Shown: positions 2,695-46,608 of the stretch, in pieces
Position numbering within the stretch: the stretch's first letter is position 1
How the letters are laid out: each line of letters begins with the position of its first letter
Notes under the pieces: generated by a model
What the model saw: the letters and a program-made list of their open reading frames with translations, nothing else
Database searches by the model: none
Told to the model about the DNA's origin: nothing
Sequence record: NZ_CP039562.1
From: a plasmid
Reading direction: 5' to 3' (one strand)
Length of the DNA stretch: 64,000 nucleotides
Program-made: the position numbers and the translations under genes

Positions 2695-2727
2695 AAACTT
2701 TCACATGTGAAAGTGGAGTGAGAACTG

Positions 2728-3156
2728 ATGATCAAGATTACAACTAAATTGGGATGCCTTCTGGCGGGGCTGCTTGTCCTGTCGGCTTGCTCAAGCGTCC
2801 CTCAGCCAAACAACGAATACGCGAAGGCCTTGGATGATACCAAACAGGTATGCGCTGCCTGTGCCCTGGTTGGTAATGACCTGCTGGTTGCCCTCAACAA
2901 GTCATGCGACACCCCAATGACCCCCGAGACTCTTACAAGCGTCATGAACAGTAACCCGATGTTTGCCGCCATGATGGCAATTAACTCCATAGGTGGAACC
3001 GACTTCTATCAGGTTTACCGTGATGCGGCCATAGACACCCTGCGGTGCAATGAAATGGACAGTTGGCCTGATCGGACCAAGGTGCGTTTCCAGCAGCCCG
3101 ACATGCAAAAGGCGCTGGCCTTGAGGGTTTCTGCCAGACAGCAGAAGGCAAATTAA
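2728..3156 (+). CDS. lipoprotein
   Basis: Lipobox LLVLSAC. Bounded on both sides by the 18-bp palindrome. Confidence 0.5.
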   Translation: MIKITTKLGCLLAGLLVLSACSSVPQPNNEYAKALDDTKQVCAACALVGNDLLVALNKSCDTPMTPETLTSVMNSNPMFAAMMAINSIGGTDFYQVYRDAAIDTLRCNEMDSWPDRTKVRFQQPDMQKALALRVSARQQKAN

Positions 3157-3212
3157 CTTTCACATGTGAAAGTCAGGCTCTCCGGGGCCTGATTTCACTA
3201 TGAGGTGAATCT

Positions 3213-3572
3213 ATGGAGTTACAAGAAGCAAAAGAGGCTCTCGATAGCCTTCATCCACACAAGGCCTCAGCGCCTTTGAGGCTTGTCATCCACCAGCCAG
3301 GTGGGATTGGTGGAACCCCTACAGTGGGGGTGAAAGCTATTCACGCAGGCTTTGACTGGGACAGCAACACCATCCTGATCTATCCGGAAGAGCAGCTCAC
3401 CCGGTTGACGCCGGATGAGGTCGCCGCCATCACGAAGTCAGTATCGAAAGGACAGTCCTGGCATTCATATCAGCAGTTCAAGAAGTATCGGGAGCAGTTG
3501 GCCGAAGCCACGGAAGAAATTAATAGGCTCAGGGCTGAGCTGGGCAGGTATCAGAATAACGGGAGGGGGTAA
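3213..3572 (+). CDS. hypothetical protein
   Basis: 119-aa ORF with a coiled-coil C-terminus. Its stop overlaps the next start. Confidence 0.4.
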
Positions 3573-4018
3573 TGCTAAAACGCGGAATTATCAATCTCGC
3601 TGCTAGTTACATCATTGTTGATGCCCTACTCCGGAATGCAGCAATTTGGATCTTTGGCTTGTCCTTCTCCGTTGGTGGCACTTACGTCACTGGCGAGGCC
3701 AGTACATGGGTCGTTTACCTAGCCACTTCTGGTGCCATGACACTCTGTTCTGTCGTAACAGCCTACCTGCTCGTGACCTATCACCGCTGGGGGCTGATGA
3801 CGGCCAGGGTCTGGTTGCTATTGAGTGCCTGCCTAAACGGCTATGCCGTCTATTTGAGTAGCCACAACATCCAGTTGGTGGTGGCACTGCTTTCCAGCCT
3901 GTTTATTGCTTTGTGGATGCTCAAGACCCTTGAGCAACCAGCAGTGAAGGGGACGTACAAGGTAATCGCTGATCTTCACCGTCAGCTATGGGGAATGTTG
4001 AAGGGGCAAACACAATGA
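3572..4018 (+). CDS. membrane protein
   Basis: Four predicted transmembrane helices. Translationally coupled to neighbouring genes. Confidence 0.4.
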
Positions 4019-4533
4019 CGACGAATACTCAAAACGCGAACGCCAACCAGGTTCGGTCTTTACGCGACATGCTTGTCCCCGCCCTGTTGTTCTATGTGGT
4101 GATGACGGCCATGTTTGTGGGTCTTGACGCATTCATGGATAAACCCACCAGCATGAACCTGCCATTTATGCCGTTCCTTGTCTCGATGGTGAGTTTTACC
4201 AGTGACGCACGTCGAGCGTGGGACTGGCGAAACGGGACCAAGGTTGTAGCTGTATTGACTGCGGTAGCCATGCTGTTGGCATTCATCTATCAGCTCGCGG
4301 TCGGAGAGATGAATCTCTTAGGGGTTGGTATATACCCGGCCACAGCCATCCTTCTGTTGGCAATCTCCTGGGTGATTCGCGCTATCGGAAAGACAGCACC
4401 TTTCCAGTTCCTGGGGAGACACCTGGCGCGGTTTGGTGCATCGAAGTGGGTCCAGCGTACCGCCGCAGTCATTGTGCTCGCGGGAGGCCTTGCCATCACT
4501 ATCTATGCCTACTGGCTTAACCACGGGAGCTGA
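4015..4533 (+). CDS. membrane protein
   Basis: ATG at 4015 follows a GAAGGGG ribosome-binding site. Multiple hydrophobic helices. Confidence 0.4.
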
Positions 4534-4763
4534 TGATGATCATTGCAACGAAGAACGGCTTTCTGGTGGCCGCAGAACTAATCAGGGAAGAGGCCGGGTA
4601 CTGGCTACTACAGCCTCGTGACCAAAAGACGCCGGTCAGGGTGAATAAGCAGGATAACAATAAACGCGCTTTCACGCATATGGGAGACGCCCTTCGCTGG
4701 GCCGGTGATCCTGAGCTTGCAAAGCAATTCGATGCCGAGGGGGAAGAACATGCAAATTCGTGA
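4533..4763 (+). CDS. small hypothetical protein
   Basis: 76-aa ORF. Its start overlaps the preceding stop. Confidence 0.3.
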   Translation: MMIIATKNGFLVAAELIREEAGYWLLQPRDQKTPVRVNKQDNNKRAFTHMGDALRWAGDPELAKQFDAEGEEHANS

Positions 4764-5607
4764 CTACATGACAAAGTTGTTTGACGCATTTGGTGATGTG
4801 GAGGAAGTCACCCGAGAAATGCTTCTGGAGCAGGCGGAGCTCATTCATACGATCAGCGATAAGTGTCAGAGCACAGGCCTGTTTCTGGATAGTCAGGTTC
4901 GTTTCAACCAGTTCGTTCAAGAGATTGAGGCTGACGACAAGGTAGAGGATCGGTTGCTTCATGCTTGGTGCTGGGTAATGGACCGAATAGTGAAGGCTCC
5001 AACATCCTTTCACATGGATGGGGCTGTGATTTTGACAATGCCTCTGGTCGCCAGATACCTGCCACCGGTTGAACAGGAGCCGGAAACCATCGTGGTGAAT
5101 CTCGATGAGGACTACAAGGCTCCTGTAGGCAACCAAACGCTCTGCGAGCTCGTTATGGAACGGAGGCATTGGCCGCAAGGTGCAACCTGTGCGACCCAAG
5201 AAGCGGACGGGGGAGTCCTCTACTGGGACGCCCCGGTTGATGTGGTAGAGGAAGGCAGAAAGGTCGCCGGTAAGCACGGCATGATGGCCGAGATCGGATT
5301 GAAACATCAGGTTGATGCCTGGTATGCAGATATGGACGAAACACGGCTCGCAACCGATTGGAACACCGCCGTCATTACGCCTCACTGCTTGCTGCTTTCC
5401 TATCTGGATGTGCTTCAAAAGAACAAAGTTCCCTTTGATGAAGGTGTGCAGCTCGCTGCCGAATGGGTGAAGCAACTTGGCGGGGAATTTCGTGAAGACA
5501 CTGAGGAAGCGCCGGAAGCTGAGGCTTCAGTGCTTTCCCTGGGGAGAGCCACGGCTCATTGCTTTAAACCCTATCCGGACACAAAAAATTTCTATTACGA
5601 GGCCTAA
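4750..5607 (+). CDS. hypothetical protein
   Basis: ATG at 4750 follows a GAGGGGGAAG ribosome-binding site. 285 aa with no recognisable domain. Confidence 0.45.
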   Translation: MQIRDYMTKLFDAFGDVEEVTREMLLEQAELIHTISDKCQSTGLFLDSQVRFNQFVQEIEADDKVEDRLLHAWCWVMDRIVKAPTSFHMDGAVILTMPLVARYLPPVEQEPETIVVNLDEDYKAPVGNQTLCELVMERRHWPQGATCATQEADGGVLYWDAPVDVVEEGRKVAGKHGMMAEIGLKHQVDAWYADMDETRLATDWNTAVITPHCLLLSYLDVLQKNKVPFDEGVQLAAEWVKQLGGEFREDTEEAPEAEASVLSLGRATAHCFKPYPDTKNFYYEA

Positions 5608-5632
5608 GCCTCACCCAAACAGGAGGATCAAC

Positions 5633-5821
5633 ATGCGATACCAGGTATTTAAAACGAAGGAAGGGGGCCAGCCGGTGTTTACGGCACCGTGGTACTGGTT
5701 GGCCTCTGCCATTGCTCACTGGTCATCTCTTAACTGGGATGCCTGTCGAATCGTAGACAGCAAGGTGGATGAAACAAGGCTCTGTTGGGCCAAGGCTCTA
5801 CCGGCTGGGAAAAAAAAGTAA
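5633..5821 (+). CDS. small hypothetical protein
   Basis: Strong AGGAGG ribosome-binding site 6 nt upstream of the ATG. 62 aa. Confidence 0.35.
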   Translation: MRYQVFKTKEGGQPVFTAPWYWLASAIAHWSSLNWDACRIVDSKVDETRLCWAKALPAGKKK

Positions 5822-5837
5822 TTTGGATGGAGTGATT

Positions 5838-6365
5838 ATGAGGTTAGGTTTTGTGAAAAATACGGGGGTTTCAGCGTTCCTGGTAGCCATGCTGGTGGTG
5901 GCCCCTCAGGTATGGGCAGAAACCTTTACTGCGAAGGTTGTGGGGGTGTCTGACGGTGATACGGTCAAGGTCCTGACTGAACAAAGCTGTGACTCCGGGA
6001 AAGATTGCCGGAGCGGCAAAATCCAGTACCGGGTAAGGCTGGCGGAAATCGACACCCCAGAGAAGAAACAACCCTACGGCTCAAAGGCGAAACAGGCGTT
6101 GTCCGATCTGGTGTTTGGTCGAATGATTAAAGTCGAGCAAATCGACAAAGACCGTTATGGCCGTCTGGTCGCCAACCTTTATGTCGATGGCAAATGGGTC
6201 AATGCCGAAATGGTCCGTTCTGGGAGTGCGTGGGTGTACCGGCAGTACGCCAAAACACCGGAGCTGTTCAAGCTGGAGGCCGAAGCCAAAGCCGATAAGC
6301 GAGGTCTCTGGGCATTACCGGAATCGGAGAGAACTCCCCCTTGGGAGTGGCGAAGAAAGCACTAA
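5838..6365 (+). CDS. nuc: secreted thermonuclease (SNase-like)
   Basis: Signal peptide. Staphylococcal-nuclease-like motifs (DGDT, RLxxIDTPE, YGR). Confidence 0.7.
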   Translation: MRLGFVKNTGVSAFLVAMLVVAPQVWAETFTAKVVGVSDGDTVKVLTEQSCDSGKDCRSGKIQYRVRLAEIDTPEKKQPYGSKAKQALSDLVFGRMIKVEQIDKDRYGRLVANLYVDGKWVNAEMVRSGSAWVYRQYAKTPELFKLEAEAKADKRGLWALPESERTPPWEWRRKH

Positions 6366-6422
6366 CCACACCCCAGAGTATGCAGGTGTAAACAGTAACC
6401 AAGAAAACAAACAGGAATAACG

Positions 6423-6695
6423 ATGAACAAAAGTGAACTGATTATGAAAGTGGCCGAAGACGCTGACATTAGCAAAGCAAAGGCCGAAGCTGCGGTAAAT
6501 GCGCTGATCAACTCAGTGACAGAGGAGCTTAAAGCGGGTGGGACAGTAGCGCTCACTGGGTTTGGTACTTTCCACGTTAAGGAACGCGCAGCGCGAACCG
6601 GGCGGAATCCCCAGACTGGAGAGAACATCCAGATCGCGGCGGCCAACATTCCTGGGTTCAAAGCTGGTAAGGGGTTGAAAGACTCCGTGAACTAG
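6423..6695 (+). CDS. HU-family DNA-binding protein
   Basis: 90-aa protein with the classic HU/IHF signature (GFGTF...RNPQTGE). Followed by a hairpin terminator at 6728–6752. Confidence 0.85.
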
Positions 6696-6782
6696 ATCTT
6701 AATCATGTGACACATGAATAAGGTTTACATAAGGCTCCTTCGTGGGAGCCTTATTCATATCAGACATGAATAAGGGGAAGGG

Positions 6783-7076
6783 ATGAGATTGTCGTCAACT
6801 CAAAAAGACGTTTTGTTCATTCTATACGCAATTGAGGCCGGTGGAAAAGCCGAGCCTGTACCAGGTGTAAAAATACTGGAGATGATCAATTCAGCTCGCC
6901 AGAGCGGTATTCATGGAACGAACTTCCGAACGTCATGCCACACGCTGGTGGAGAACGGCCTGTTGAACAAGTACCGGAATGCTTCTCTAAAGCTGGCCTT
7001 TAGGCTGACCGACGATGGCAGGGAACGTGCAGGAGAGATATACCGAAAACGGCTGGAAGAAGAGCAAGAGAAGTAA
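6783..7076 (+). CDS. hypothetical protein
   Basis: 97-aa ORF. Confidence 0.35.
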   Translation: MRLSSTQKDVLFILYAIEAGGKAEPVPGVKILEMINSARQSGIHGTNFRTSCHTLVENGLLNKYRNASLKLAFRLTDDGRERAGEIYRKRLEEEQEK

Positions 7077-7102
7077 TACGCCCCATAACGGGGCGTATCG
7101 AG

Positions 7103-7405
7103 TTAAACGGCAAAGCCGTAGTGGGTGCCGTCCGGAAGTTCAACATCGAGGCGTAGCTTGCCACCGGAGGCCTCAACGTACCGCTTAATGGACGACAGCT
7201 TGAGATCTCGTCCAGGTTTTTCCATCTCGGAGACTGTCGGCTGTCTCACACCCAGAGATGCAGCAATTTCCCCCTGGGTAAGGTTCATGCGATCACGAAG
7301 CTCTGCCAAGTGGATGTTCAGTAACATCTCAGTGGCCGCTTTCTGTGCTTTGGCAACAACCTCAGGCTTTTCTGTTGCCAGCATTTGGTCAAGAGTTCTT
7401 GCCAT
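7103..7405 (-). CDS. higA: HigA-like XRE-family antitoxin
   Basis: HTH block NLTQGEIAASLGVRQPTVS. Lies immediately downstream of the toxin gene in the same operon. Confidence 0.7.
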   Translation of the reverse strand: MARTLDQMLATEKPEVVAKAQKAATEMLLNIHLAELRDRMNLTQGEIAASLGVRQPTVSEMEKPGRDLKLSSIKRYVEASGGKLRLDVELPDGTHYGFAV

Positions 7406-7409
7406 AACG

Positions 7410-7760
7410 TCACTCCTTCTTCAATTTATCCAAGTGCGCCGCAAACTCACGGTCTGCAATTGGGATCATTACTTCATAAAACCTTTTCTCGTCCCCGGTC
7501 TTGTTACCGGCGCAGAGAAGAATCCCCTTACGCTTTGGATCGAACGCAAAGAACGCTCTGATAGGATCTCCTTTGCTTTGGACCCGAAGCTCTTTCATGT
7601 TGCTGTAGGATGAACCGTTAACAGTATCCGCGTATGGCCTCGACAGCATGGGGCCTCTATCTCGCAGCACCATCATCGAAGCCAGCACGTTTGCTCTATC
7701 GGTATCATCCAGAGCATCGAACCACTCATCAAAGGTGTCGGTTGTCTCGATGACCCACAT
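7410..7760 (-). CDS. higB: HigB/RelE-family toxin
   Basis: 116-aa protein resembling HigB-type toxins. Its stop abuts the antitoxin start. Confidence 0.6.
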   Translation of the reverse strand: MWVIETTDTFDEWFDALDDTDRANVLASMMVLRDRGPMLSRPYADTVNGSSYSNMKELRVQSKGDPIRAFFAFDPKRKGILLCAGNKTGDEKRFYEVMIPIADREFAAHLDKLKKE

Positions 7761-7852
7761 GATTTCTCCTTACTTAATATAGGTGCAATCCTATATAGAT
7801 TCAAACCTATAATCAAGAAAAATCGGCGGCGATGGGGGCCGAAATGTCAGTA

Positions 7853-7912
7853 AGTAGTCATGTGACTAAAATAGGGGGTAGAATAAGCCTCGATATAGTC
7901 ATGTGACTAAAA
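7853..7912. promoter_or_regulatory. direct repeat AGTCATGTGACTAAAA ×2 (candidate operator)
   Basis: Identical 16-mers at 7853–7868 and 7897–7912, in the divergent region between higB and the 7923 gene. Confidence 0.4.
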
Positions 7913-7922
7913 GGTGTCCTGA

Positions 7923-8471
7923 ATGAACAACCTACCCCTACTGCTCGATGCAAGAGAAGCCATTGACTACTACCACCAGCATCCAGGCATGACTGATGCA
8001 GAAAAGGCCTATGTGGTCGCGTTCCTAAGCGGAGAGGGGCGTTCAAACAGTCAGATCAGAGAGGATCTGGGTATTGAGAAGGTCTATACGGTTACACACC
8101 TGAAACGCGCCGGTACGCTATCGGAGGAAGAGCTAACACTCTGGCTCAGAAATCCACGCAAGATCACCCTGGGGCATGTGAGGGCCGTGGCTAAGTTACC
8201 TTTCAGCAAGAGAGAAAAGCTCCTGAGGGATCTCCTGCATACCAGGACACCGGTTCATAAATTTGAGGCGATAGCGAAGGGCAAAGAAGTGGACAGGGAT
8301 GCAGACATTAAGCGCCTGGAGACCCTGATGAGCGATGCTACGGGTAGGCCTATCAAAGTTCGCTATAACCCCGCGAAGCGCTCCGGGGAACTGACGCTGG
8401 GATTCTTCACGCTCGATGACCTGGATGACGTGTGCAAGGCTTTGGGGTTTGATCCAAGCGAGCAGATGTAA
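7923..8471 (+). CDS. hypothetical protein
   Basis: 182-aa ORF with no clear domain. Confidence 0.4.
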   Translation: MNNLPLLLDAREAIDYYHQHPGMTDAEKAYVVAFLSGEGRSNSQIREDLGIEKVYTVTHLKRAGTLSEEELTLWLRNPRKITLGHVRAVAKLPFSKREKLLRDLLHTRTPVHKFEAIAKGKEVDRDADIKRLETLMSDATGRPIKVRYNPAKRSGELTLGFFTLDDLDDVCKALGFDPSEQM

Positions 8472-8560
8472 ACCAGAAAACTTTCACATGTGAAAGTCTT
8501 GCAAGGTGTCTTTTTATTGTTTACAGTATCATAAAATGAATCTGTAAAGGTGCGCGATGA

Positions 8561-8812
8561 ATGTGCTTCCAACGAAAAGCTGGCCTTGGGCGTTATAACT
8601 CAACCAGACCTGAGTGGCTGGCGGCGTACCGAAACGCAAGATGTATGAGAAGCTCAGGTAAAGAACCTGATGCTTCTCTTTCCGGGATAGCTTGGAAGGC
8701 GCAACTCATTGTTGCCCATGAAAGAGGCAGAATTGACAGCCTGGCTGTCCCTTTGGATGCCAGATTGATAGCAAAGAACCTCATCGACGAGATCCTTGCT
8801 GAGGAGAACTGA
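8561..8812 (+). CDS. hypothetical protein
   Basis: 83-aa ORF, first gene of a coupled four-gene set. Confidence 0.3.
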   Translation: MCFQRKAGLGRYNSTRPEWLAAYRNARCMRSSGKEPDASLSGIAWKAQLIVAHERGRIDSLAVPLDARLIAKNLIDEILAEEN

Positions 8813-9006
8813 TGGACGAAAAAATTACCTACGAAGAAATGCTTGAACAACTCGACCAGAAAGGCATCCGCGTCACCAACGGGGCGAGACGGCTTTATGT
8901 CGCGTTGAACAACGGAGTCAAAGCTGAGGTGCTGGGTAACTGCGGTCCCGCCACAATCAGCTTGGTTGACGGGATGATTGTTGTGGAAGAGCAGACTCTC
9001 CACTAA
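8812..9006 (+). CDS. small hypothetical protein
   Basis: Start overlaps the preceding stop (TGATG). Confidence 0.3.
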   Translation: MDEKITYEEMLEQLDQKGIRVTNGARRLYVALNNGVKAEVLGNCGPATISLVDGMIVVEEQTLH

Positions 9007-9016
9007 GGGCAGCAGC

Positions 9017-9851: not shown

Positions 9852-9865
9852 CCGTGGAGCCAGTC

Positions 9866-10207: not shown

Positions 10208-10297
10208 CTCTCCTTTTCAACTTACACTTTTATCCTATCACAGCATTAAAAAATGCAACTGTGAAAGGGCATTTTTCATTCAAAAAGAGGTGACACT

Positions 10298-25368: not shown

Positions 25369-25541
25369 CAGCACAAACCTTGTCAATAAGCGGCCTTCAT
25401 GGCCGTTTTTTTGTTTAAAGTTTGTTTTAACAGAACCATAATTAGATATTGCAGTATCATTTTATGATCGCTACAATCTTTCACATGTGAAAGTTTGGGG
25501 GTGGTCTTGATCACCTGCGAGAAACCAAAATAGAGGTGGGT

Positions 25542-26327
25542 ATGGCAAAAGTAATCAGCTTCGCCAACCAGAAAGGCGGAGTGGGTAAGAGTACCCTCTG
25601 TATCCAGCAGGCCTTTTATCTGGCGTTACAGAAGAAAAAGAAAGTGCTGGTCTTGGATATGGATGGTCAGGGGAACACGTCCTCTCGACTGGCCCCCAGA
25701 CGAGAGCTTGAGGATGGTGACTACGAGCCCATCCTCACAGGAACCAAAACCGCAGAGCTGTTCGCTTACGAGCTGGACGGCATTGAGGTCATGCACTGCC
25801 CTTGCGGTGCAGACCTCATTCATACGCCGAAAAACGACCCGGATCTGTTTGAGATGGAGGCTGTGCCTCTTGACCAGGCCATGAATCCGGCTCGCCATTT
25901 GGCTGAGCTGTTTGAGAACTACGACTACGTGCTGATTGATTGTCCGCCTAGCCTCGGCAGAAAGCTGGTGGCAGCGTTGGTGATGTCTACCCATGTGGCA
26001 TGTCCAGTAAAGCTCTCTGGCTTCGCTGTGGACGGCGTAGAAGGTCTCCTGAACACGATTATTGGTGTGCGCGAGGCGTACAACCAAGATTTGGAGATCC
26101 TGGGCATCGTGATCAACGACATGGACCGCTCTGTCAATCACGACAAAGCCCTCAAGTCGCTGGAGAACACAGTTCCGGATCTGTTGTTTGAGAACAAAAT
26201 TATGCACCGGCCTCCGCTCGATACGGCGACGACTGATGGCATCCCTGTCTGGGAGCTTCGCTATGGACATGTCGCGGCCAAAGAAGTTGAGGCGGTGTTG
26301 GAAGAACTATTAGAGAAGGTGGGCTAA
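25542..26327 (+). CDS. parA: ParA partition ATPase
   Basis: Deviant Walker A motif KGGVGKST. GAGGTGGG ribosome-binding site. The palindrome ACTTTCACATGTGAAAG sits about 50 bp upstream. Confidence 0.9.
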   Translation: MAKVISFANQKGGVGKSTLCIQQAFYLALQKKKKVLVLDMDGQGNTSSRLAPRRELEDGDYEPILTGTKTAELFAYELDGIEVMHCPCGADLIHTPKNDPDLFEMEAVPLDQAMNPARHLAELFENYDYVLIDCPPSLGRKLVAALVMSTHVACPVKLSGFAVDGVEGLLNTIIGVREAYNQDLEILGIVINDMDRSVNHDKALKSLENTVPDLLFENKIMHRPPLDTATTDGIPVWELRYGHVAAKEVEAVLEELLEKVG

Positions 26328-26330
26328 GCG

Positions 26331-27512
26331 ATGGCATTGAACAATTTAAAAGGCCTGTCCGAACTTGCTAAAGCCGCCAAAGGCAAGAAAGGCAAAGAGG
26401 TTCTTACCGTACCTGTTGACGACGTTGTATCCAAGGTCCAGGTTCGTAAGCGCTTCCGTAACATTGAAGAGCTGGCGGCAACCTTGCTGACCGAAGGGCA
26501 GCAGTCTCCGATCATCGTGTTCCCGAAGAACGAAGAAGGCAAGTTCGTCATCCAAAAAGGGGAGCGGCGTTGGAGAGCGTGTAAACACGCTGGTATCGAG
26601 ACCATTGACTTGGTGGTGAATGATAAGGTCCAGAACAACTTGGACGAGACTGCTGGTGAGCTGATCGAAAACATCCAGCGGGATGACTTGACTCCGGTAG
26701 AGATTGCCGAGGCGTTAAACCTGTTTATTGAAGAAGGTTGGAAGCAAAAGGATATTGCTGATCGGCTCGGTAAGAATATCACTTTCGTATCTACGCATCT
26801 GTCGTTGCTCAAGCTACCTGACTGTGTGCGTGAGTTATACGATAATGAAGTATGTTCTGATACAGAGACCTTGAATAACCTTCGTCTCTTGTTCGATCTG
26901 AATGAAGAAAGATGTCGCGCCGTCTGCGCGGTGGCTATGTCTGACGGGATTACTCGTAAACAAAGCCGTGAGCTGCTGAATGATGCCAAACGTATCAAAG
27001 ACGAAATGGAAAAAGGCCCACTGACTGGCTCCCACCAGAATGATGAGCTTGGCGCTGGCAACACCGACGAGCAATCCCTCAACTCGGGTGGGGATGGTAC
27101 GTCGGAACAAACCGGGAATGACGACCTGAACCTTGCCCAGGAGGAACTGGAAGGGGGTAAAAATTCCAATGGTCAGGACGATGATGACGAAGACCCTTTG
27201 CGTGATGAAGAGGGTGAGCACAAAGATCCTGTCAAGCAGCCAGATAACAGCGGCAAGGACAAAGATGAAGAAGGCGGTGATGCTCTTCCTCCTCTGCCGA
27301 AGGACAAGGAATGGAAGAACGTCCGGGCTGACAGTTTGATTTTTGCTGTCAACGTTAACCTGGATGGCGAGACCAAACGTGGAGTCATCATGACCGACCG
27401 TGTTGCTCTGGTTCCGTCTACTGTCTGGGTTAAAACGCTCGATGGCGAAGGCAAGGAAAAGCATGTTCATGTGCCTGTGTCAGACATTGAACTCCTGAGT
27501 GTCGAAGGCTAA
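26331..27512 (+). CDS. parB: ParB partition protein with a long acidic linker
   Basis: ParB N-terminal box (SPIIVFPKNE...GERRWRA), an HTH, and a 90-aa acidic low-complexity stretch. Confidence 0.85.
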   Translation: MALNNLKGLSELAKAAKGKKGKEVLTVPVDDVVSKVQVRKRFRNIEELAATLLTEGQQSPIIVFPKNEEGKFVIQKGERRWRACKHAGIETIDLVVNDKVQNNLDETAGELIENIQRDDLTPVEIAEALNLFIEEGWKQKDIADRLGKNITFVSTHLSLLKLPDCVRELYDNEVCSDTETLNNLRLLFDLNEERCRAVCAVAMSDGITRKQSRELLNDAKRIKDEMEKGPLTGSHQNDELGAGNTDEQSLNSGGDGTSEQTGNDDLNLAQEELEGGKNSNGQDDDDEDPLRDEEGEHKDPVKQPDNSGKDKDEEGGDALPPLPKDKEWKNVRADSLIFAVNVNLDGETKRGVIMTDRVALVPSTVWVKTLDGEGKEKHVHVPVSDIELLSVEG

Positions 27513-27885: not shown

Positions 27886-28521
27886 TTATGCTGCCACGGT
27901 AGCGGCGGTTGCTGGAGGTTTTTCGGCGTAGTAGGCGATGTTCTTGGTTCGTCTGCTAAGGGTGTCTATGCCGACGATACTCAGCGTTTTGGGAGTGGTA
28001 TTGCGGGACTCGAAATAATGGAATAGCTGGATCATGCAGCACTTCACCATCAACGGATCGATGTCTTCCAGGTAGATTGAGGCTTCTCTCAATGCTTCGG
28101 GACCGTGGTTCTCGATCAGGTTTTCCATCCAGTGAATGGCGTTGATGCCAGAACCACAGCAGGGCTCATAAAAGTCTGCCGAAGACTGTGAGCCAACAAT
28201 GAGTGACATCAAGCGGCCAATCTCTGGAGGAGTGGGGAAGTAATTGGTGCCCTTCTTGTGGAAGCCAGACATGCTTAGGACGTAACCCAAAACATCGCTG
28301 GTGGGGTCGCGCTTAATGGCGGCAGACAGGACGTGAGAGAGCTCGAAGGCGACCGGCTGAAGTTCTTCCGGGATCTCCTCCTTGGCTGGGTATAGGCCAG
28401 TCTGCAAGTATGCCCACTGGTCAATAAAGGCCTCAACAAACCGAGATGTGCCCATTCTGTATCGGGACTGCTCGATGAGAGATAAAGCCTTGGATGTAAG
28501 TTGCTGTGTTTCTGGTGACAT
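27886..28521 (-). CDS. small SAM-dependent methyltransferase-like protein
   Basis: FYEPCCGSG (motif I-like) and NYFPTPPEI (motif X-like). No canonical NPPY/DPPY motif. Confidence 0.45.
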   Translation of the reverse strand: MSPETQQLTSKALSLIEQSRYRMGTSRFVEAFIDQWAYLQTGLYPAKEEIPEELQPVAFELSHVLSAAIKRDPTSDVLGYVLSMSGFHKKGTNYFPTPPEIGRLMSLIVGSQSSADFYEPCCGSGINAIHWMENLIENHGPEALREASIYLEDIDPLMVKCCMIQLFHYFESRNTTPKTLSIVGIDTLSRRTKNIAYYAEKPPATAATVAA

Positions 28522-28612
28522 AAGCGCTCCAGTTTGTTCTGACGAAACATTCAAGAGGTAGAAACGAAGAACCCCGCCGAAGCGAGGTTCTTTGCTTTCC
28601 TGCCTGATCGCC

Positions 28613-28756: not shown

Positions 28757-29082
28757 AACAAAGCTCCTTAATTGCTTGATTGTGTTGTAAGGGCTGCAAC
28801 GAAGGTCGAAGAGCGATGCGGCCCTTATTTATGATTATTACAGCATCATAAAATAATATCAAGAGACAATAAAACGATACCAAGAAACAAAACTTTCACA
28901 TGTGAAAGTCTCCCCGCTGTCCACCTCGCACACTCCAAACGCCCAAACGCCCAAATAACTTGTCTATCTGCCCAAAATGGGCGCGTAAGCGTCCGATAGA
29001 AAGTAATTGTTAGTGAGATATTGACTACACGGAATATGGCTATATCATAGAATCATAAAATGATGCTGTAAAAGTGATATGT

Positions 29083-38764: not shown

Positions 38765-41737
38765 ATGCTGAAAGCCCTTAACAAGTTATTTGGTGGGCGA
38801 AGTGGAGTGATCGAGACCGCGCCGAGCGTCAGAGTGTTGCCGCTTAAAGACGTGGAAGATGAAGAAATCCCTCGATACCCACCTTTTGCCAAGGGCCTGC
38901 CAGTGGCCCCACTAGACAAGATACTGGCAACCCAAGCTGAACTGATTGAGAAAGTGCGGAACTCTCTCGGTTTCACTGTGGACGACTTCAACCGGCTTGT
39001 TTTGCCGGTGATCCAGCGGTATGCCGCGTTTGTTCACCTGTTGCCAGCTTCCGAATCACACCACCACCGTGGCGCTGGTGGTCTGTTCCGACATGGGCTT
39101 GAAGTGGCCTTCTGGGCAGCTCAGGCATCTGAGTCAGTTATCTTTTCCATCGAGGGGACGCCTCGTGAACGCCGTGACAATGAGCCGCGTTGGAGACTGG
39201 CGAGCTGTTTCTCCGGGCTGCTGCATGATGTGGGTAAACCGCTCTCGGATGTGTCCATTACGGACAAAGACGGGTCAATCACATGGAACCCGTATTCGGA
39301 GTCACTTCATGACTGGGCACACCGTCACGAAATCGACCGTTACTTTATCCGGTGGCGCGACAAGCGACACAAAAGACATGAGCAATTCTCGCTGCTGGCG
39401 GTGGATCGAATTATTCCGGCTGAGACTCGGGAGTTTCTGTCCAAGTCTGGCCCGTCCATCATGGAAGCGATGCTGGAAGCTATCTCAGGAACCAGCGTCA
39501 ATCAGCCTGTGACCAAGCTGATGCTTCGCGCTGACCAAGAGAGCGTCTCACGGGACCTTCGCCAGAGTCGTCTCGATGTGGACGAGTTCTCCTATGGTGT
39601 GCCTGTCGAGCGGTACGTGTTCGATGCCATCCGCCGCCTGGTTAAAACCGGAAAATGGAAGGTCAATGAGCCAGGCGCGAAAGTCTGGCACCTCAACCAA
39701 GGTGTATTCATTGCCTGGAAACAGCTTGGGGACCTTTATGACTTGATCAGCCACGACAAGATCCCCGGTATTCCACGAGACCCTGACACACTGGCCGACA
39801 TTCTCATCGAACGTGGTTTTGCTGTACCAAACACGGTGCAGGAGAAGGGTGAACGTGCGTACTACCGCTACTGGGAAGTTTTGCCTGAGATGCTCCAGGA
39901 GGCGGCGGGATCGGTGAAGATCTTGATGCTCCGACTCGAATCAAACGACCTGGTGTTTACGACTGAGCCTCCTGCGGCTGTTGCTGCGGAAGTTGTTGGT
40001 GATGTTGAGGACGCTGAGATTGAGTTCGTTGATCCTGAGGAAGTCGATGACGACCAAGAGGAAGATGTGTCAGCTCTGAACGATGACATGTTGGCCGCAG
40101 AGCAGGAAGCAGAGAAAGCTCTAGCTGGTCTTGGCTTTGGTGATGCGATGGAGATGCTGAAAAGCACCTCAGATGCTGTCGAGGAGAAACCAGAGCAAAA
40201 AGATGCTGGATCAACGGAATCATCTAAGCCTGACGCTGGCAAGAAGGGTAAGCCGCAGAGCAAACCGGGCAAAGCAAAACCGAAGAGTGATACAGAGAAA
40301 CAACCCCACAAACCAGAGGCAAAAGAGGATTTGTCCCCTCAGGACATTGCCAAAAACGCACCACCTTTGGCAAACGACAATCCGTTACAAGCACTCAAGG
40401 ATGTTGGGGGTGGACTGGGGGACATCGACTTTCCGTTTGACGCATTCAGCGCATCGGCAGAGACAGCCAGCACTGACGCAACAAACTCAGAAATCCCAGA
40501 TGTGGCAATGCCCGGAAAGCAAGAGAAGCAGCCAAAACAGGACTTCGTTCCACAAGAACAAAACTCCCTGCAGGGCGATGACTTTCCAATGTTCGGTAGT
40601 TCTGATGAACCGCCATCATGGGCGATTGAGCCGCTCCCTATGCTGACTGACGCACCAGAACAAACAACACCAGCGCCAGCAATGCCACCTACGGACAAAC
40701 CTAATCTGCATGAGAAAGACGCAAAGACCTTACTCGTTGAGATGTTAGCCGGGTACGGAGAAGCATCGGCGTTGCTTGAACAAGCGATCATGCCTGTTTT
40801 GGAAGGTAAAACGACGCTGGGCGAAGTCCTATGCCTGATGAAGGGTCAAGCCGTCATTTTGTACCCGGATGGCGCTCGGTCGCTGGGTGCGCCGTCAGAG
40901 GTTCTCTCGAAGCTGTCCCACGCCAACGCGATTGTTCCAGACCCGATTATGCCAGGTCGCAAAGTTCGTGATTTCAGCGGAGTGAAGGCAATTGTACTGG
41001 CGGAGCAGCTTTCAGATGCAGTCGTAGCGGCCATTAAGGATGCCGAGGCGTCAATGGGGGGATACCAGGATGCCTTTGAGCTCGTCTCTCCCCCTGGCTT
41101 GGATGCAAGCAAGAATAAGTCTGCACCGAAACAACAAAGCCGAAAAAAGGCGCAGCAGCAGAAGCCTGAGGTTAACGCCGGTAAACCCTCGCCTGAACAA
41201 AAGGCGAAAGGTAAGGACTCCCAGCCACAGCAGAAGGAGAAGAAGGTCGATGTTACTTCTCCGGTTGAAGAGCCGCAGCGCCAGCCGGTCCAAGAAAAAC
41301 AGAACGTGGCTCGCCTTCCTAAGCGGGAGGTTCAACCAGTGGCTCCTGAGCCCAAAGTTGAGCGTGAGAAGGAATTGGGACACGTCGAGGTGCGAGAAAG
41401 GGAAGAGCCAGAGGTTAGGGAGTTTGAGCCGCCTAAGGCGAAAACAAACCCGAAAGACATCAACGCGGAAGATTTCTTGCCGTCTGGTGTTACGCCTCAG
41501 AAAGCACTCCAGATGCTCAAGGACATGATCCAAAAACGCTCGGGCAGATGGCTCGTGACACCTGTCCTGGAAGAGGATGGCTGCTTAGTAACCAGTGACA
41601 AAGCCTTCGACATGATTGCCGGTGAAAACATCGGCATCAGCAAACACATCCTCTGCGGGATGCTGAGCCGGGCACAGAGACGGCCTTTGCTCAAGAAACG
41701 TCAGGGAAAACTGTATTTAGAGGTAAATGAAACATGA
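38765..41737 (+). CDS. traI: MOBH-family conjugative relaxase TraI (HD domain)
   Basis: 990 aa. HD phosphohydrolase motif (LLHDVGKPLSD) near the N-terminus and a long acidic/basic low-complexity C-terminal half. Followed by traD. Characteristic of SXT/IncA-C-type TraI. Confidence 0.8.
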   Translation: MLKALNKLFGGRSGVIETAPSVRVLPLKDVEDEEIPRYPPFAKGLPVAPLDKILATQAELIEKVRNSLGFTVDDFNRLVLPVIQRYAAFVHLLPASESHHHRGAGGLFRHGLEVAFWAAQASESVIFSIEGTPRERRDNEPRWRLASCFSGLLHDVGKPLSDVSITDKDGSITWNPYSESLHDWAHRHEIDRYFIRWRDKRHKRHEQFSLLAVDRIIPAETREFLSKSGPSIMEAMLEAISGTSVNQPVTKLMLRADQESVSRDLRQSRLDVDEFSYGVPVERYVFDAIRRLVKTGKWKVNEPGAKVWHLNQGVFIAWKQLGDLYDLISHDKIPGIPRDPDTLADILIERGFAVPNTVQEKGERAYYRYWEVLPEMLQEAAGSVKILMLRLESNDLVFTTEPPAAVAAEVVGDVEDAEIEFVDPEEVDDDQEEDVSALNDDMLAAEQEAEKALAGLGFGDAMEMLKSTSDAVEEKPEQKDAGSTESSKPDAGKKGKPQSKPGKAKPKSDTEKQPHKPEAKEDLSPQDIAKNAPPLANDNPLQALKDVGGGLGDIDFPFDAFSASAETASTDATNSEIPDVAMPGKQEKQPKQDFVPQEQNSLQGDDFPMFGSSDEPPSWAIEPLPMLTDAPEQTTPAPAMPPTDKPNLHEKDAKTLLVEMLAGYGEASALLEQAIMPVLEGKTTLGEVLCLMKGQAVILYPDGARSLGAPSEVLSKLSHANAIVPDPIMPGRKVRDFSGVKAIVLAEQLSDAVVAAIKDAEASMGGYQDAFELVSPPGLDASKNKSAPKQQSRKKAQQQKPEVNAGKPSPEQKAKGKDSQPQQKEKKVDVTSPVEEPQRQPVQEKQNVARLPKREVQPVAPEPKVEREKELGHVEVREREEPEVREFEPPKAKTNPKDINAEDFLPSGVTPQKALQMLKDMIQKRSGRWLVTPVLEEDGCLVTSDKAFDMIAGENIGISKHILCGMLSRAQRRPLLKKRQGKLYLEVNET

Positions 41738-43599
41738 CAATGAGTTATGACCCGCTCGCCTACGAGATGCCGTGGCGGCCCAACTATGAAAAAAATGCTG
41801 TAGCAGGCTGGCTTGCCGCCTCCGGCGCGGCTTTGGCCGTAGAGCAAGTCAGCACGATGCCTCCGGAGCCCTTCTATTGGATGACGGGGATCTGTGGCGT
41901 GATGGCGATGGCTCGTTTGCCAAAGGCTATCAAACTTCACCTGCTCCAAAAGCATTTGAAGGGGCGTGATCTGGAGTTTATTTCTATTGCGGAGCTCCAA
42001 AAGTACATCAAGGACACGCCGGACGATATGTGGCTTGGTAGTGGGTTCCTGTGGGAAAACCGCCATGCCCAGCGCGTGTTTGAGATCCTGAAACGCGACT
42101 GGACTTCCATCGTAGGGAGAGAGTCCACGGTCAAAAAGGTTGTCCGGAAGATACAGGGTAAGAAAAAGGAGCTGCCAATCGGCCAGCCCTGGATTCACGG
42201 GGTAGAACCCAAAGAAGAGAAGCTGATGCAGCCACTCAAGCACACTGAGGGGCATTCGCTGATCGTTGGGACCACCGGCTCGGGCAAGACCCGTATGTTC
42301 GACATCCTGATTTCACAGGCCATTCTGCGTGGGGAAGCCGTGATCATCATAGACCCGAAAGGGGATAAGGAGATGCGGGACAATGCACGACGTGCCTGTG
42401 AAGCTATGGGGCAGCCGGAAAGATTCGTCTCATTTCATCCAGCATTCCCGGAAGAGTCGGTGCGTATCGACCCTCTGCGTAACTTCACCCGCGTGACTGA
42501 AATTGCAAGTCGTTTGGCAGCGTTGATCCCGTCCGAAGCAGGGGCCGACCCGTTCAAATCATTTGGATGGCAGGCACTGAACAACATCGCTCAGGGCTTG
42601 GTCATCACTCATGATCGTCCCAACCTGACAAAGCTCCGCCGATTCCTTGAAGGTGGCGCTGCTGGCTTGGTCATCAAGGCCGTTCAGGCTTACTCAGAGC
42701 GAGTTATGCCCGACTGGGAGGCAGAAGCAGCGGCTTATTTGGAGAAAGTCAAAAACGGTTCGCGTGAGAAGATCGCTTTCGCGTTGATGAAGTTCTACTA
42801 CGACATCATCCAACCTGAGCACCCAAACTCTGATCTGGAAGGCTTGCTGTCGATGTTCCAGCACGACCAAACCCACTTCTCCAAGATGGTGGCGAACCTC
42901 CTGCCGATCATGAATATGCTGACGTCCGGGGAGCTAGGCCCTCTGCTGTCTCCAGACTCATCTGATCTGAGCGACGAACGCCAGATCACTGATTCCGCAA
43001 AAATCATCAACAACGCTCAAGTTGCTTATCTGGGGCTCGACTCCCTGACCGACAACATGGTTGGTAGTGCTATGGGGTCCATCTTCCTGTCAGACCTGAC
43101 AGCGGTTGCCGGTGACAGATACAACTACGGCGTCAACAACAGACCCGTAAATATCTTTGTTGATGAGGCTGCTGAGGTGATCAACGACCCGTTCATCCAG
43201 CTCCTGAACAAAGGTCGCGGTGCGAAACTTCGTCTTTTCGTTGCAACTCAGACTTTTGCTGACTTCGCAGCTCGACTGGGTAGCAAAGACAAAGCGCTCC
43301 AAGTGTTGGGGAACATCAACAACACGTTTGCTCTGCGTATCGTCGATGGTGAAACACAGGAGTATATCGCAGATAACTTGCCGAAGACCCGGCTCAAGTA
43401 CGTCATGCGGACTCAAGGCCAGAACTCGGATGGCAAGGAGCCCATTATGCACGGAGGCAACCAAGGCGAGCGTTTGATGGAGGAGGAAGCTGATCTGTTC
43501 CCAGCCCAGTTATTGGGAATGCTTCCGAACCTGGAATACATAGCCAAAATTTCAGGCGGAACAATCGTAAAAGGCCGTCTGCCCATATTGACCCAGTAA
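41734..43599 (+). CDS. traD: type IV coupling protein TraD
   Basis: N-terminal transmembrane helices, Walker A motif GTTGSGKT, Walker B motif IFVDEA. 621 aa. Confidence 0.85.
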   Translation: MTMSYDPLAYEMPWRPNYEKNAVAGWLAASGAALAVEQVSTMPPEPFYWMTGICGVMAMARLPKAIKLHLLQKHLKGRDLEFISIAELQKYIKDTPDDMWLGSGFLWENRHAQRVFEILKRDWTSIVGRESTVKKVVRKIQGKKKELPIGQPWIHGVEPKEEKLMQPLKHTEGHSLIVGTTGSGKTRMFDILISQAILRGEAVIIIDPKGDKEMRDNARRACEAMGQPERFVSFHPAFPEESVRIDPLRNFTRVTEIASRLAALIPSEAGADPFKSFGWQALNNIAQGLVITHDRPNLTKLRRFLEGGAAGLVIKAVQAYSERVMPDWEAEAAAYLEKVKNGSREKIAFALMKFYYDIIQPEHPNSDLEGLLSMFQHDQTHFSKMVANLLPIMNMLTSGELGPLLSPDSSDLSDERQITDSAKIINNAQVAYLGLDSLTDNMVGSAMGSIFLSDLTAVAGDRYNYGVNNRPVNIFVDEAAEVINDPFIQLLNKGRGAKLRLFVATQTFADFAARLGSKDKALQVLGNINNTFALRIVDGETQEYIADNLPKTRLKYVMRTQGQNSDGKEPIMHGGNQGERLMEEEADLFPAQLLGMLPNLEYIAKISGGTIVKGRLPILTQ

Positions 43600-43609
43600 G
43601 AGCAGAGCT

Positions 43610-44194
43610 ATGTGTGACAAGAAGTATAGAAATTACGAGGTAGCCATCATGGTCGATGTGAACCCTTTCGACAGGGTTATGAATGAATTGAAAAGTCGTG
43701 GCCGCAAGAACGCTCACATCCTGAGCATCCTCCAATTCGACTGGCCTGCATCGGAGGCCATCATCGAGAAGCTGAGCTGCTACATCACAGACGGGATTAA
43801 GGCTAATCAGGAGCCTGTGATTTACCCGATCATTGAAGAAGCTCTGCATCGCTACAGCCAGCTCGTGTTTCATGAGCAGAGAGAGAAATATGAAGACCCG
43901 GCCAGAATTGGGGCATTTCTGGAAACCCTGATCACCGAAACCTGCCGGGCGTTGGAAGTGCAAATTGTCGATAGTGGCGGTGATTCATGGTCTGTCGATT
44001 CAGGAGAGTCGTTCTCACTGTGGCTTTCTTCCCATCCAGGAGAACTATCCATTAACCCGCAGCCCCATGAGGATGAGACCTCTTTGCGTGGCTTGCTGTA
44101 TGAGCTCATCACCTGTGAGAGCGTGAAAACTGTTTTAAGGAGAACCGACTATGAAGAAGCCGTGGTTGCTGGTCGCATGGCTGCTGGTTATTGA
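43610..44194 (+). CDS. hypothetical protein
   Basis: 194-aa ORF downstream of traD. Confidence 0.4.
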   Translation: MCDKKYRNYEVAIMVDVNPFDRVMNELKSRGRKNAHILSILQFDWPASEAIIEKLSCYITDGIKANQEPVIYPIIEEALHRYSQLVFHEQREKYEDPARIGAFLETLITETCRALEVQIVDSGGDSWSVDSGESFSLWLSSHPGELSINPQPHEDETSLRGLLYELITCESVKTVLRRTDYEEAVVAGRMAAGY

Positions 44195-44780
44195 GTTGCT
44201 GGCAATATTGCTGCTGATCCCTGGCGACTGGACAGACAGAGCCATCAAAAGGGAATCCGAGCTGGTGGAACAGAGTCTTGGTGTCGAAGCAAGAGACTGG
44301 ATACAGAACAAAGCATCTACCTGGTTCAGGTCGAGCGTTATTGATTCAGGATTCTATGAGGGGATGTACCAAACGCTGATCCCATCAGAAGAGGAGCGCC
44401 AGAAGTCCAAGGGGATGCAGGACATGGGCAAGGGCTGGTTTGTGTGGGTCAAAGGCCGCATGGAAGCCTTTGTCAACGTCATTTACCAGTTCTACACAAG
44501 GTTGGCACTGTTAGCCGCGTGGGCTCCCTATATGCTGATCCTGTTCGTACCTGCGGTATATGACGGGATGATGACATGGCGAATTAAGCGGACCAACTTC
44601 GATTATGCGAGTCCGGTTCTCCATCGTTACAGCGTTCGCGGAACGATGTACCTGATGGCCGGATTGTTCATCGCGTTCTTCATCCCCATAGCGCTCGATC
44701 CGGTTGTCATCCCGATGACAATGATGACGTGCTGTGTCCTGGTTGGCCTGACGTTCGGCAACCTCCAGAAACGGGTATAG
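44151..44780 (+). CDS. membrane protein
   Basis: 209 aa with multiple transmembrane helices. Confidence 0.4.
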   Translation: MKKPWLLVAWLLVIELLAILLLIPGDWTDRAIKRESELVEQSLGVEARDWIQNKASTWFRSSVIDSGFYEGMYQTLIPSEEERQKSKGMQDMGKGWFVWVKGRMEAFVNVIYQFYTRLALLAAWAPYMLILFVPAVYDGMMTWRIKRTNFDYASPVLHRYSVRGTMYLMAGLFIAFFIPIALDPVVIPMTMMTCCVLVGLTFGNLQKRV

Positions 44781-44789
44781 GGAGGGAGG

Positions 44790-45236
44790 ATGAGCTACTC
44801 CGTTATAAATCAAGATGGGGTGCATCTGTGCGACATCCCATTGAACGTCTACCAGGTGATACGTCGCCAATCCTTGTCTGCGTTGTGGCTTTACTGGGCG
44901 CAGAGCTTGAATTTGGTGAAGGTGCTCATTGCTTGCGTCGGAAAGATGATCTTTGTGATGCCGGTAATGTGGTTCTGGGTGCTGGTGGTGTGCCGCTTGG
45001 TTGAACCAGAACGTATCTCAGACGTGTCAGGACTTATCTCTCCGGACGTGATCGGGTGGGCCGCTGGTGCGGCCATCACCCTCATTATCTTTTCCGTATT
45101 TACACGCCCAGCGTTGTACGGATACCACAACTTTTTCAAGCAGCATATTTGCTCAAGAGTAAAGCAAGTAACGCCGGAACTCAGAACAGTCACTGGGCCA
45201 CTGTTCTTTTACCGAAACGAAATTGGAACGATATAG
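44790..45236 (+). CDS. membrane protein
   Basis: 148 aa with three or four transmembrane helices. Confidence 0.4.
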   Translation: MSYSVINQDGVHLCDIPLNVYQVIRRQSLSALWLYWAQSLNLVKVLIACVGKMIFVMPVMWFWVLVVCRLVEPERISDVSGLISPDVIGWAAGAAITLIIFSVFTRPALYGYHNFFKQHICSRVKQVTPELRTVTGPLFFYRNEIGTI

Positions 45237-45245
45237 AGAGGAACC

Positions 45246-45623
45246 ATGAAAGTAACTAATAGACTCCAACTGCTGGCACTGGGGCTGTGTATAGCCGGTA
45301 CTGCCATCGCGGCTCCTGATGTGCTCAATGACGACGCAAAGCTCAAGAACCTTGAGAAGGTGTGTCCCGACTGTCAGATGGTGGCAAAAGATGTACTCAA
45401 TCTGCGGGTTGAAAACTGCCAGCTCAAAGACACTTCCAGTGCAATGATGATTGGCACCATGCAAAATGACCCTATGTTTTCGTTTATGCTGGCTGTACAC
45501 ACAGCGGCAGGCTCGGAGGCATACAAAACGGTAGTTGGTGCCGCTGGCAACCATGTTGACTGTGAAAACCCGTTGAACTGGATCAAGCTGACCCAGCAAG
45601 CGATTAAAGGTGGCAAAGTCTAA
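45246..45623 (+). CDS. periplasmic protein
   Basis: Signal peptide MKVTNRLQLLALGLCIAGTAIA. Contains cysteine pairs. Confidence 0.4.
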   Translation: MKVTNRLQLLALGLCIAGTAIAAPDVLNDDAKLKNLEKVCPDCQMVAKDVLNLRVENCQLKDTSSAMMIGTMQNDPMFSFMLAVHTAAGSEAYKTVVGAAGNHVDCENPLNWIKLTQQAIKGGKV

Positions 45624-46285
45624 TGCGTAAGAGAGATTTCTTTTTTGGAGAGGTGTATGAGGGGAGTGGAGGAGCCACTCTACGACTGAGTGATATGGAA
45701 CCATTGGCAAGAAAAGTGTCGGCAGAGTTCTTCACTGCACAACTGAACCGTATACTGAAAGAGCATGACGGTCAGTTGACGCTCAGCGATGGAACGTCGT
45801 ACCCCAGCTTTTGGAGCTTCATCGACAAGGTTGATCCAGAGCAGGTTGGTTTCGTGGAGATCTACGCTCGGCAGGATGTTAACGATAATGTTGAAGCGAC
45901 ACTGGCGTGTGACATCGTTTTGGTAAATGGTGTGATCACCGTTAAACCTCACTGGTGTGCTTACAAAGACATCAGGGCTGACGAAGTGATTTCCACCTTA
46001 CTGGTGCCTTTGCATTTGAAGGCTCTCCAGGGTAAGGCTTACATTCGCTGGGATGATGGTGAAACCGAACCTCTGTTACAAAACGACGACTATCAGGCTG
46101 AACTTGAAAATGTGTTTAGTGTTTCCAAGTACCCATCAGCCATGAGCTGGGGCGATACAGCAGACCAGAAGGTTAAGCAGTACAAGATGGACCTTGAGTG
46201 CGCCACAGATGTTGGTCGTCGAGGTGTCTCATCAGAGCAAGCATGGGATGCTTATCGAGAACTCCGTTACAATAGAACAGTGTGA
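45623..46285 (+). CDS. hypothetical protein
   Basis: 220 aa. Hairpin terminator at 46289–46307. Confidence 0.4.
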   Translation: MRKRDFFFGEVYEGSGGATLRLSDMEPLARKVSAEFFTAQLNRILKEHDGQLTLSDGTSYPSFWSFIDKVDPEQVGFVEIYARQDVNDNVEATLACDIVLVNGVITVKPHWCAYKDIRADEVISTLLVPLHLKALQGKAYIRWDDGETEPLLQNDDYQAELENVFSVSKYPSAMSWGDTADQKVKQYKMDLECATDVGRRGVSSEQAWDAYRELRYNRTV

Positions 46286-46608
46286 AACAAGCGGCCATCG
46301 GCCGCTTTGAACTTTCACATGTGAAAGTTTTTCGCCTCCCGCTCTTATCATCTCCTCGAATAAACCTCCATAAAGTGCCCAAAATGGGCCGTAACAGCAC
46401 TGTTCCTAGATTGATCAATTAAGAGACGATTACTCCGTGATGACGACAAGTTATTTGGAGGGTCTATGTCCGCACAAGCTCACGTCAGAGAAAGCGAAAG
46501 CTCATCTGGTTCATTCATCTCCTGGCAGTTCCTTGTCTGGCAGGTGATGTTCGTTATAGGTGTTGTTGCAGGGATGAACCTGGAACACGCATTCAATTTT
46601 CTAGGTTA

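Follow-up and report, generated by a model that had tools for sequence, protein, structure and literature searches.

Multi-site partition systems provide the closest described counterparts of the locus considered here. In the IncP-1 plasmids RK2/RP4, KorB is both the ParB protein and a global repressor, acting on a network of 12 OB sites with KorA as its partner. The chromosomal parS consensus, the site of Spo0J/ParB, is TGTTNCACGTGAAACA, and sopC of the F plasmid consists of tandem 43-bp repeats, each with a 16-bp inverted repeat. Here we describe six copies of a palindrome in the window, a 64,000-nucleotide stretch of the plasmid sequence record NZ_CP039562.1 that also encodes a parA-parB-053 operon (parAB053). 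The same palindrome was characterised as the parS of IncC plasmids by Murányi, Szabó, Acsai and Kiss (Nucleic Acids Res 2024; PMC10954446), whose starting point was the functions of SGI1 that destabilise IncC plasmids. They described a 22-bp inverted repeat, AAAC-TTTCACATGTGAAA-GTTT, present in two SGI1 direct repeats, in the parA promoter (PparA) of plasmid R55 and at 13 further places in the R55 backbone, 14 on R55 in all. Purified ParB, the product of the second open reading frame (ORF) of parAB053, shifted three probes in electrophoretic mobility shift assays (the consensus, the PparA site and SGI1 DR2); the 14-bp core by itself was unbound, and a central 4-bp insertion abolished both binding and incompatibility. 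ParA and ParB had to be supplied together to stabilise an unstable SGI1 mini-replicon with a single site (PMC10954446).

The six palindromes almost certainly belong to the set of approximately 14 parS sites used by parAB053, the type I parABS partition system of the IncC plasmid. A pattern search of the window found the perfect 18-mer ACTTTCACATGTGAAAGT at positions 2697, 3156, 8480, 28892, and 46311, and a sixth copy at 25477-25494 that agrees at 17 of 18 positions, with T replacing the first A. These six matches compare with 0.04 expected for the 18-mer from 100 dinucleotide-preserving shuffles, and the 16-bp core, which is intact in every copy, with 0.01 expected. Relaxing the pattern to up to three mismatches across the window yielded no additional credible copy. 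A first-pass annotation, made from the letters of the window, had already placed the six copies here and judged them to be beyond chance, and both statements hold. Its observation that all copies are intergenic and that none lies in acquired DNA is also correct for the window (6/6, and 0 in either resistance region), and the intergenic rule is limited to the window: complete IncC plasmids also have several copies within ORFs. The 22-bp sites, with their counterparts on pR55, are:

2695..2716, no strand: parS, AAAC-TTTCACATGTGAAA-GTGG, in the 33-bp gap between dsbA (stop 2694) and ORF 2728; pR55 10340 (R55_13)
3154..3175, no strand: parS, TTAC-core-GTCA, overlapping the last stop-codon base of ORF 2728-3156, the 18-mer lying 39 bp ahead of ORF 3213; pR55 10799 (R55_14)
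8478..8499, no strand: parS, AAAC-core-GTCT, 8 bp past the stop of the ParB-like gene 7923-8471; pR55 16123 (R55_24)
25475..25496, no strand: parS in PparA, AATC-core-GTTT, an imperfect 22-bp inverted repeat overlapping the -10 box and the transcription start region; pR55 39917
28890..28911, no strand: parS, AAAC-core-GTCT, in the divergent vcrx035/vcrx036 region between genes 28757 (minus) and 29083 (plus); pR55 43332 (R55_55)
46309..46330, no strand: parS, TGAC-core-GTTT, directly after a GC hairpin and 25 bp past the stop of ORF 45623-46285; pR55 61212 (R55_74)

The 14-bp core TTTCACATGTGAAA is exact in all six sites. GT stands directly to its right in every copy and AC directly to its left in five of the six (TC at PparA), while the outer two bases are variable. 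A full-text literature search with the core string led to PMC10954446, so the motif, which had been taken for uncharacterised, is an already known feature, and the sites themselves add nothing new in biology. The earlier suggestion of a multi-site parS set resembling the KorB-OB sites is borne out by the published ParB mobility shift and the ParA/ParB-dependent stabilisation, both obtained with the same sequence (PMC10954446). A later follow-up of the 2024 paper was not found in the literature search.

The correspondence with R55 extends to individual sites. The paper used R55 as JQ010984.1, and our independent re-count on the RefSeq copy NC_016976.1 (pR55) gave exactly 14 perfect cores plus one single-mismatch variant. 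Identical 54-mers link the first five listed sites to pR55, and the sixth, 46311, was matched by its position behind a homologous gene. Seven of the remaining R55 sites fall outside the window; the other, R55_29 (R55 19459), falls in an 11.5-kb backbone segment of pR55 (R55 18.9-30.5 kb) that is missing here, and is hence absent. In place of that segment the window carries an IS26/ARI-B-type resistance block. The 103-kb IncC plasmid NZ_CP009412.1 has 11 cores, and an unbiased count of perfect palindromes identified TTTCACATGTGAAA as the sole multi-copy 14-bp palindrome on it. The same is true of the A/C-like Pseudoalteromonas plasmid NZ_CP033067.1, which carries nine dispersed copies and whose ParB is 57% identical to that of IncC. 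The cross-plasmid comparison proposed with the first-pass annotation gave 14, 11 and nine cores on these three plasmids and the identical core in all six A/C-like plasmids whose ParB proteins we aligned.

The window also contains the cognate operon in cis:

25449..25477, plus strand: PparA core promoter (-35 TTGCAG at 25449-25454, 17-nt spacer, -10 TACAAT at 25472-25477)
25542..26327, plus strand: parA, a short Walker-type (type Ib) partition ATPase (Pfam AAA_31/CbiA/ParA)
26331..27512, plus strand: parB, a KorB-type centromere-binding protein (Pfam ParB_N, HTH_ParB, KorB), the ligand of the palindromes according to PMC10954446
27561..27833, plus strand: gene 053, a small winged helix-turn-helix (HTH) protein by Pfam, third gene of the par operon

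The parA/parB region is 100% identical to that of hundreds of plasmids typed IncC, MOBH and MPF_F from Salmonella, Klebsiella, E. coli, Aeromonas, Vibrio and other hosts, and, judged by its sequence, the window is an IncC (IncA/C2) plasmid backbone. With the 22-bp repeat at PparA beginning at 25475, bound ParB would cover the -10/+1 region of the promoter; the 18-bp site ends 48 bp ahead of the parA ATG (25542). A published BProm prediction agrees, placing the promoter 64 bp upstream of parA with its -10 box overlapped by the repeat (PMC10954446). This architecture is kept base for base in IncA and is close in the Xenorhabdus, Aeromonas and V. harveyi plasmids.

We aligned the ParB proteins of IncC, IncA (pRAx) and the Xenorhabdus, Aeromonas, Vibrio harveyi and Pseudoalteromonas plasmids (90-57% identity to IncC ParB). 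In this six-plasmid alignment there is almost no variation in the N-terminal domain, with GERRWRA and ENIQRDDL, or in the HTH/KorB region, and the linker diverges. These two motifs are cytidine triphosphate (CTP)-binding motifs of ParB/KorB. Gene 053 retains its place behind parB in all six A/C-like plasmids compared.

ParB binds the 22-bp inverted repeat, and ParA and ParB then stabilise the DNA that bears it, as published for this sequence (PMC10954446). Because the CTP-clamp motifs and the KorB domain are conserved, we infer that ParB probably loads at each dispersed site and then slides or spreads from it. Many sites would jointly build one plasmid-wide partition complex, moved by ParA over the nucleoid. 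The copy at -10/+1 of PparA lets ParB repress its own operon, according to the published work (PMC10954446). By analogy with KorB at OB, sites 8480, 28892 and 46311, which adjoin promoters, may also modulate transcription. Selection on the DNA site itself is suggested by other genomes, where, among the matches listed, the core is invariant in 162 distinct flank contexts, with a preference for A at -2, C at -1, G at +1 and T at +2.

Several observations weigh against assigning all six copies to this system. Published binding covers three probes (consensus, PparA and SGI1 DR2) and not each site of the window. Four window sites deviate from the consensus outer flanks (GTGG, GTCA and GTCT for GTTT; TTAC and TGAC for AAAC), and the flanks matter for parS according to the published work (PMC10954446). 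Sites 2697 and 3156 occupy short gaps within an operon and have no predicted promoter, and a regulatory role is not evident there. Finally, the parA promoter of the Pseudoalteromonas plasmid has a different, single-copy palindrome, TTGCTTTAAGCAA (L129:2300-2356), and autorepression through parS is therefore not universal.

The strongest competing explanation treats the sites mainly as transcriptional operators. ParB would then resemble KorB in repressing or modulating backbone operons globally; it would slide from a site to nearby promoters, where a partner repressor would retain it, and its part in partition would be secondary. It is compatible with the parS identity, and we regard it as possible, at somewhat below an even chance. 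The KorB domain and CTP-clamp motifs of ParB speak for it, as does the position of four of the six sites at or near promoters: one covers -10/+1 of PparA, site 8480 lies 22 bp upstream of a second dyad and putative promoter of the 8561 operon, and two lie upstream of copies of the 14-mer TGCCCAAAATGGGC, which marks AcaCD-box regions. For site 28892 the distance is 60 bp (copy at 28969-28982) and for site 46311 it is 48 bp (copy at 46376-46389, vcrx068 promoter); the vcrx035/036 and vcrx068 promoter regions are AcaCD-dependent according to the literature, and several R55 sites adjoin AcaCD-dependent promoters (PMC10954446). Three of the sites have a copy of the second dyad at a distance of 3-160 bp.

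Published regulatory data point in the same direction. Whole IncC plasmids repress PparA approximately 8-11-fold, the site overlapping its -10 box, and ParAB053 alone represses it less; full repression needs a factor from outside the par operon, and the authors accordingly postulated a further repressor gene in another part of the backbone, the SGI1 protein Sci relieving the effect of this repressor (PMC10954446). A mutated parS beside PS004 of SGI1 altered the SGI1 copy number, and the authors themselves raised ParB as a KorB-like global regulator, describing this work as 'ongoing' (PMC10954446). Against a mainly regulatory role, published repression is limited to PparA, sites 2697 and 3156 have no nearby promoter, and four of the 14 R55 sites lie inside ORFs (PMC10954446). 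Consensus promoter scans near sites 2697, 3156 and 8480 gave no match; such a scan also missed the published PparA, whose -35 TTGCAG scores 3/6, and promoter positions at the sites other than PparA are therefore weakly supported. The plasmid-wide regulon or partition network proposed in the first-pass annotation stands in part: the partition role and the repression of PparA are published, while a regulon built on the other sites is still a hypothesis, which the 2024 authors also raised.

The second dyad is a dispersed 27-bp element with the consensus TTACAGyATCAT-WWW-ATGATrCTGTAA (N3 spacer) that overlaps PparA and other backbone promoters. Its short pattern ATCATWWWATRA has four matches in the window against 0.02 expected, and a 19-nt dyad pattern with up to three mismatches finds five places against 0.27 expected:

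8521..8547, no strand: second dyad, best palindromic copy, TTACAGTATCAT-AAA-ATGAATCTGTAA
11335..11361, no strand: second dyad with 1 mismatch, at the backbone edge just ahead of an IS26 junction
25449..25475, no strand: second dyad, TTGCAGTATCAT-TTT-ATGATCGCTACA, spanning -35 to -10 of PparA and separate from the published parS
28838..28864, no strand: second dyad, overlapping a predicted minus-strand promoter (TTGATA-17-AATAAT)
29045..29071, no strand: second dyad, just downstream of a predicted plus-strand promoter (TTGACT-16-TATCAT) and ahead of ORF 29083

On pR55 the dyad occurs at about ten places, all in backbone intergenic regions (4879, 16162, 18976, 20425, 26791, 39887, 43276, 43475, 166756), and one of these copies, with two mismatches, lies in Pacr1. 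The PparA copy is kept in each of the five relatives, including those with diverged flanks, and a spacer resembling the dyad is retained in the Pseudoalteromonas parA promoter. A literature search with the dyad string returned only unrelated papers, the AcaB work (Hancock et al. 2020, Nat Microbiol) being outside its coverage. At permissive thresholds Pfam gave no match for the small ORFs downstream of dyads (8561, 8812, 9017, 29083), so none of these was nominated as an autoregulated repressor.

The dyad is a plausible candidate operator for the co-repressor of PparA that the 2024 authors postulated. Alternatively, it could reflect a common promoter architecture without a dedicated repressor. 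By analogy with KorB/KorA of IncP-1, parS and the dyad might form a two-operator backbone circuit in which a co-repressor cooperates with ParB at the adjacent parS and is the target of SGI1 Sci; we offer this tentatively and consider it rather unlikely. Acr1 would be the best candidate for the co-repressor because Pacr1 carries the dyad and is repressed by Acr1, a known repressor of this promoter in the literature, and 053 would be the alternative.

Much less probable is a different ligand for the palindromes, either the truncated ParB-like regulator encoded at 7923-8471 or a DNA methyltransferase/restriction system reading the central ACATGT. The former, encoded directly upstream of site 8480, is a 182-aa protein with a ParB_C dimerisation domain and a weak HTH_ParB match that lacks the N-terminal CTPase domain; BLASTP found no significant similarity between it and plasmid ParB. 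An orphan N6-DNA-methylase gene (27886-28554, minus strand) lies right behind the par operon, as it does in IncC, IncA, Xenorhabdus and Aeromonas plasmids. These two genes speak for another ligand, but purified ParB alone shifts the site and ParA with ParB alone suffices for stabilisation (PMC10954446), which makes a role for either as the main ligand very unlikely. The parS centre does contain ACATGT/CATG, and an effect of methylation on ParB binding is pure speculation.

A role of the palindromes as RNA hairpins that terminate or stabilise transcripts between genes is more improbable still. All six copies are intergenic, several stand behind a stop codon, and site 46311 is preceded by a strong GC hairpin and has a T run behind it, all of which would suit such a role. 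The palindrome itself, however, folds into a weak hairpin (-6.4 kcal/mol) that in context at 2697 and 3156 is no better than shuffled sequence (z about -1), and four of the six sites have no T run behind them. Its sequence is invariant across the 162 contexts, without compensatory changes, which fits recognition of duplex DNA and not selection on a fold.

The remaining explanation, a small mobile repeat of the MITE (miniature inverted-repeat transposable element) or REP (repetitive extragenic palindromic) kind that is also scattered in host chromosomes without a dedicated binding protein, and that was named from the outset as what would overturn the operator or partition reading, has a next to negligible probability: the exact 18-mer does occur in at least 120 stretches of other genomes, chromosomes included, but the 58-nt flanks of the six copies share a mean pairwise identity of 25-26%, the random level, and the copies are therefore not parts of a longer repeat, conservation ends about 4 bp outside the core in the 162 distinct contexts, the chromosomal copies among the matches listed lie in integrated mobile elements beside mobI, integrase or parAB genes and not in host core DNA, and ParB binding is published (PMC10954446). 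A mobile-repeat origin was rejected, with no extended flanks shared by the window copies or by copies elsewhere.

The distribution of the partition site is wider than IncC. The exact 18-mer is found in at least 120 stretches of species-representative genomes (e.g. L010, L009, L076, L118, L023, L067), mostly of marine or aquatic Gammaproteobacteria. About nine chance matches to an 18-mer palindrome are expected in the 596 Gb searched, which fits the few archaeal and Firmicute matches. Among the matches listed, some loci are A/C-like elements, and approximately 17 are small islands with genes for an integrase, AlpA/excisionase, a DUF927 protein and MobI, in which one parS lies beside mobI (e.g. 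the Marinobacter locus L010:4102-4119). In the MobI-type islands parS is kept while the flanks diverge. The parS carriers beyond IncC in the 2024 paper are SGI1-family islands and a few plasmids (PMC10954446); the island sequences suggest that SGI1-style hijacking of ParAB is wider than reported.

In Cupriavidus pampae (L098:4896-7653) and a Limnohabitans metagenome-assembled genome (L092:4-2495), three to five cores are clustered directly upstream of parA-parB. The ParB proteins of these pairs are 33% identical to IncC ParB, and a wider ParB clade therefore appears to use the same parS, in the classical layout with the centromere beside the operon. The Limnohabitans pair adjoins a DUF3701 integrase gene. 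A contig of Edwardsiella anguillarum (L110:5064-5478) carries a tandem array of 8.6 repeats of 48 bp, each with TTTCACATGTGAAA; its core flanks are C...C/T in place of AC...GT.

The rest of the window follows the IncC backbone. From upstream of the S49 peptidase gene and dsbA, the gene order runs through an HU gene and a RelE/XRE toxin-antitoxin pair to parA-parB-053, and then through two methylase genes, topoisomerase III, traI/traD and traL to the start of traE. The first acquired block (IS26/ISVsa3-floR-tetA-strAB-sul2) spans approximately 11.45-25.0 kb and the second (IS26/CTX-M-55) extends from approximately 47.8 kb to 64 kb. Colinearity with pR55 stops at approximately 47.8 kb, within traE (expected end 48035), where the IS26-bounded CTX-M-55 region starts; the transfer region is thus interrupted. 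Six IS26-sized ORFs are present in the window. IncC plasmids, which rank among the main carriers of multidrug resistance, depend on ParB-parS for stable inheritance, and SGI1 exploits the same parS, stabilising itself and expelling the IncC plasmid.

Compared with known systems, the window sites agree with the IncA/IncC parS of parAB053 in the 14-bp core, flank preferences, plasmid family, cognate ParB and positions relative to backbone genes (PMC10954446). We see no substantive difference from it, and the window holds the parA-parB-053 operon in cis with a KorB-domain ParB. The parS mimics DR1 and DR2 of SGI1 have the same 22-bp inverted repeat, are bound by IncC ParB and serve to hijack ParAB (PMC10954446). 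They are two copies on a chromosomal island without par genes, whereas the window copies are the plasmid's own sites.

Chromosomal and IncC parS sites alike are multiple and dispersed, and in both cases the ParB that binds them has a CTP-clamp N-domain; the IncC half-sites TTTCAC/GTGAAA are the hexamers of the general chromosomal consensus. The IncC centre CACATGTG differs from it by two extra base pairs (CAC-AT-GTG versus CAC-GTG), and the outer bases differ as well; the window contains a single three-mismatch match to TGTTNCACGTGAAACA against 1.76 expected, none beyond chance. The centre, longer by 2 bp, might insulate the plasmid from host ParB. F sopC and IncC parS are both inverted-repeat ParB sites, and the Edwardsiella array of cores resembles sopC, but the IncC sites are single and dispersed over more than 100 kb, whereas sopC is arrayed by the par operon.

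A functional parallel is the KorB-OB network of IncP-1. IncC ParB likewise has a KorB domain and a CTPase N-domain and acts with roughly twelve identical palindromes spread across the backbone, one of them at the par promoter, and the dyad near several sites is a possible second operator set. Unlike in IncP-1, published repression in IncC is limited to PparA; IncC ParB is approximately 30-35% identical to KorB, and the IncP-1 OB sequence TTTAGCSGCTAAA has no match in the window at up to two mismatches. The IncC sites work like the IncP-1 KorB-OB network while standing outside its membership.

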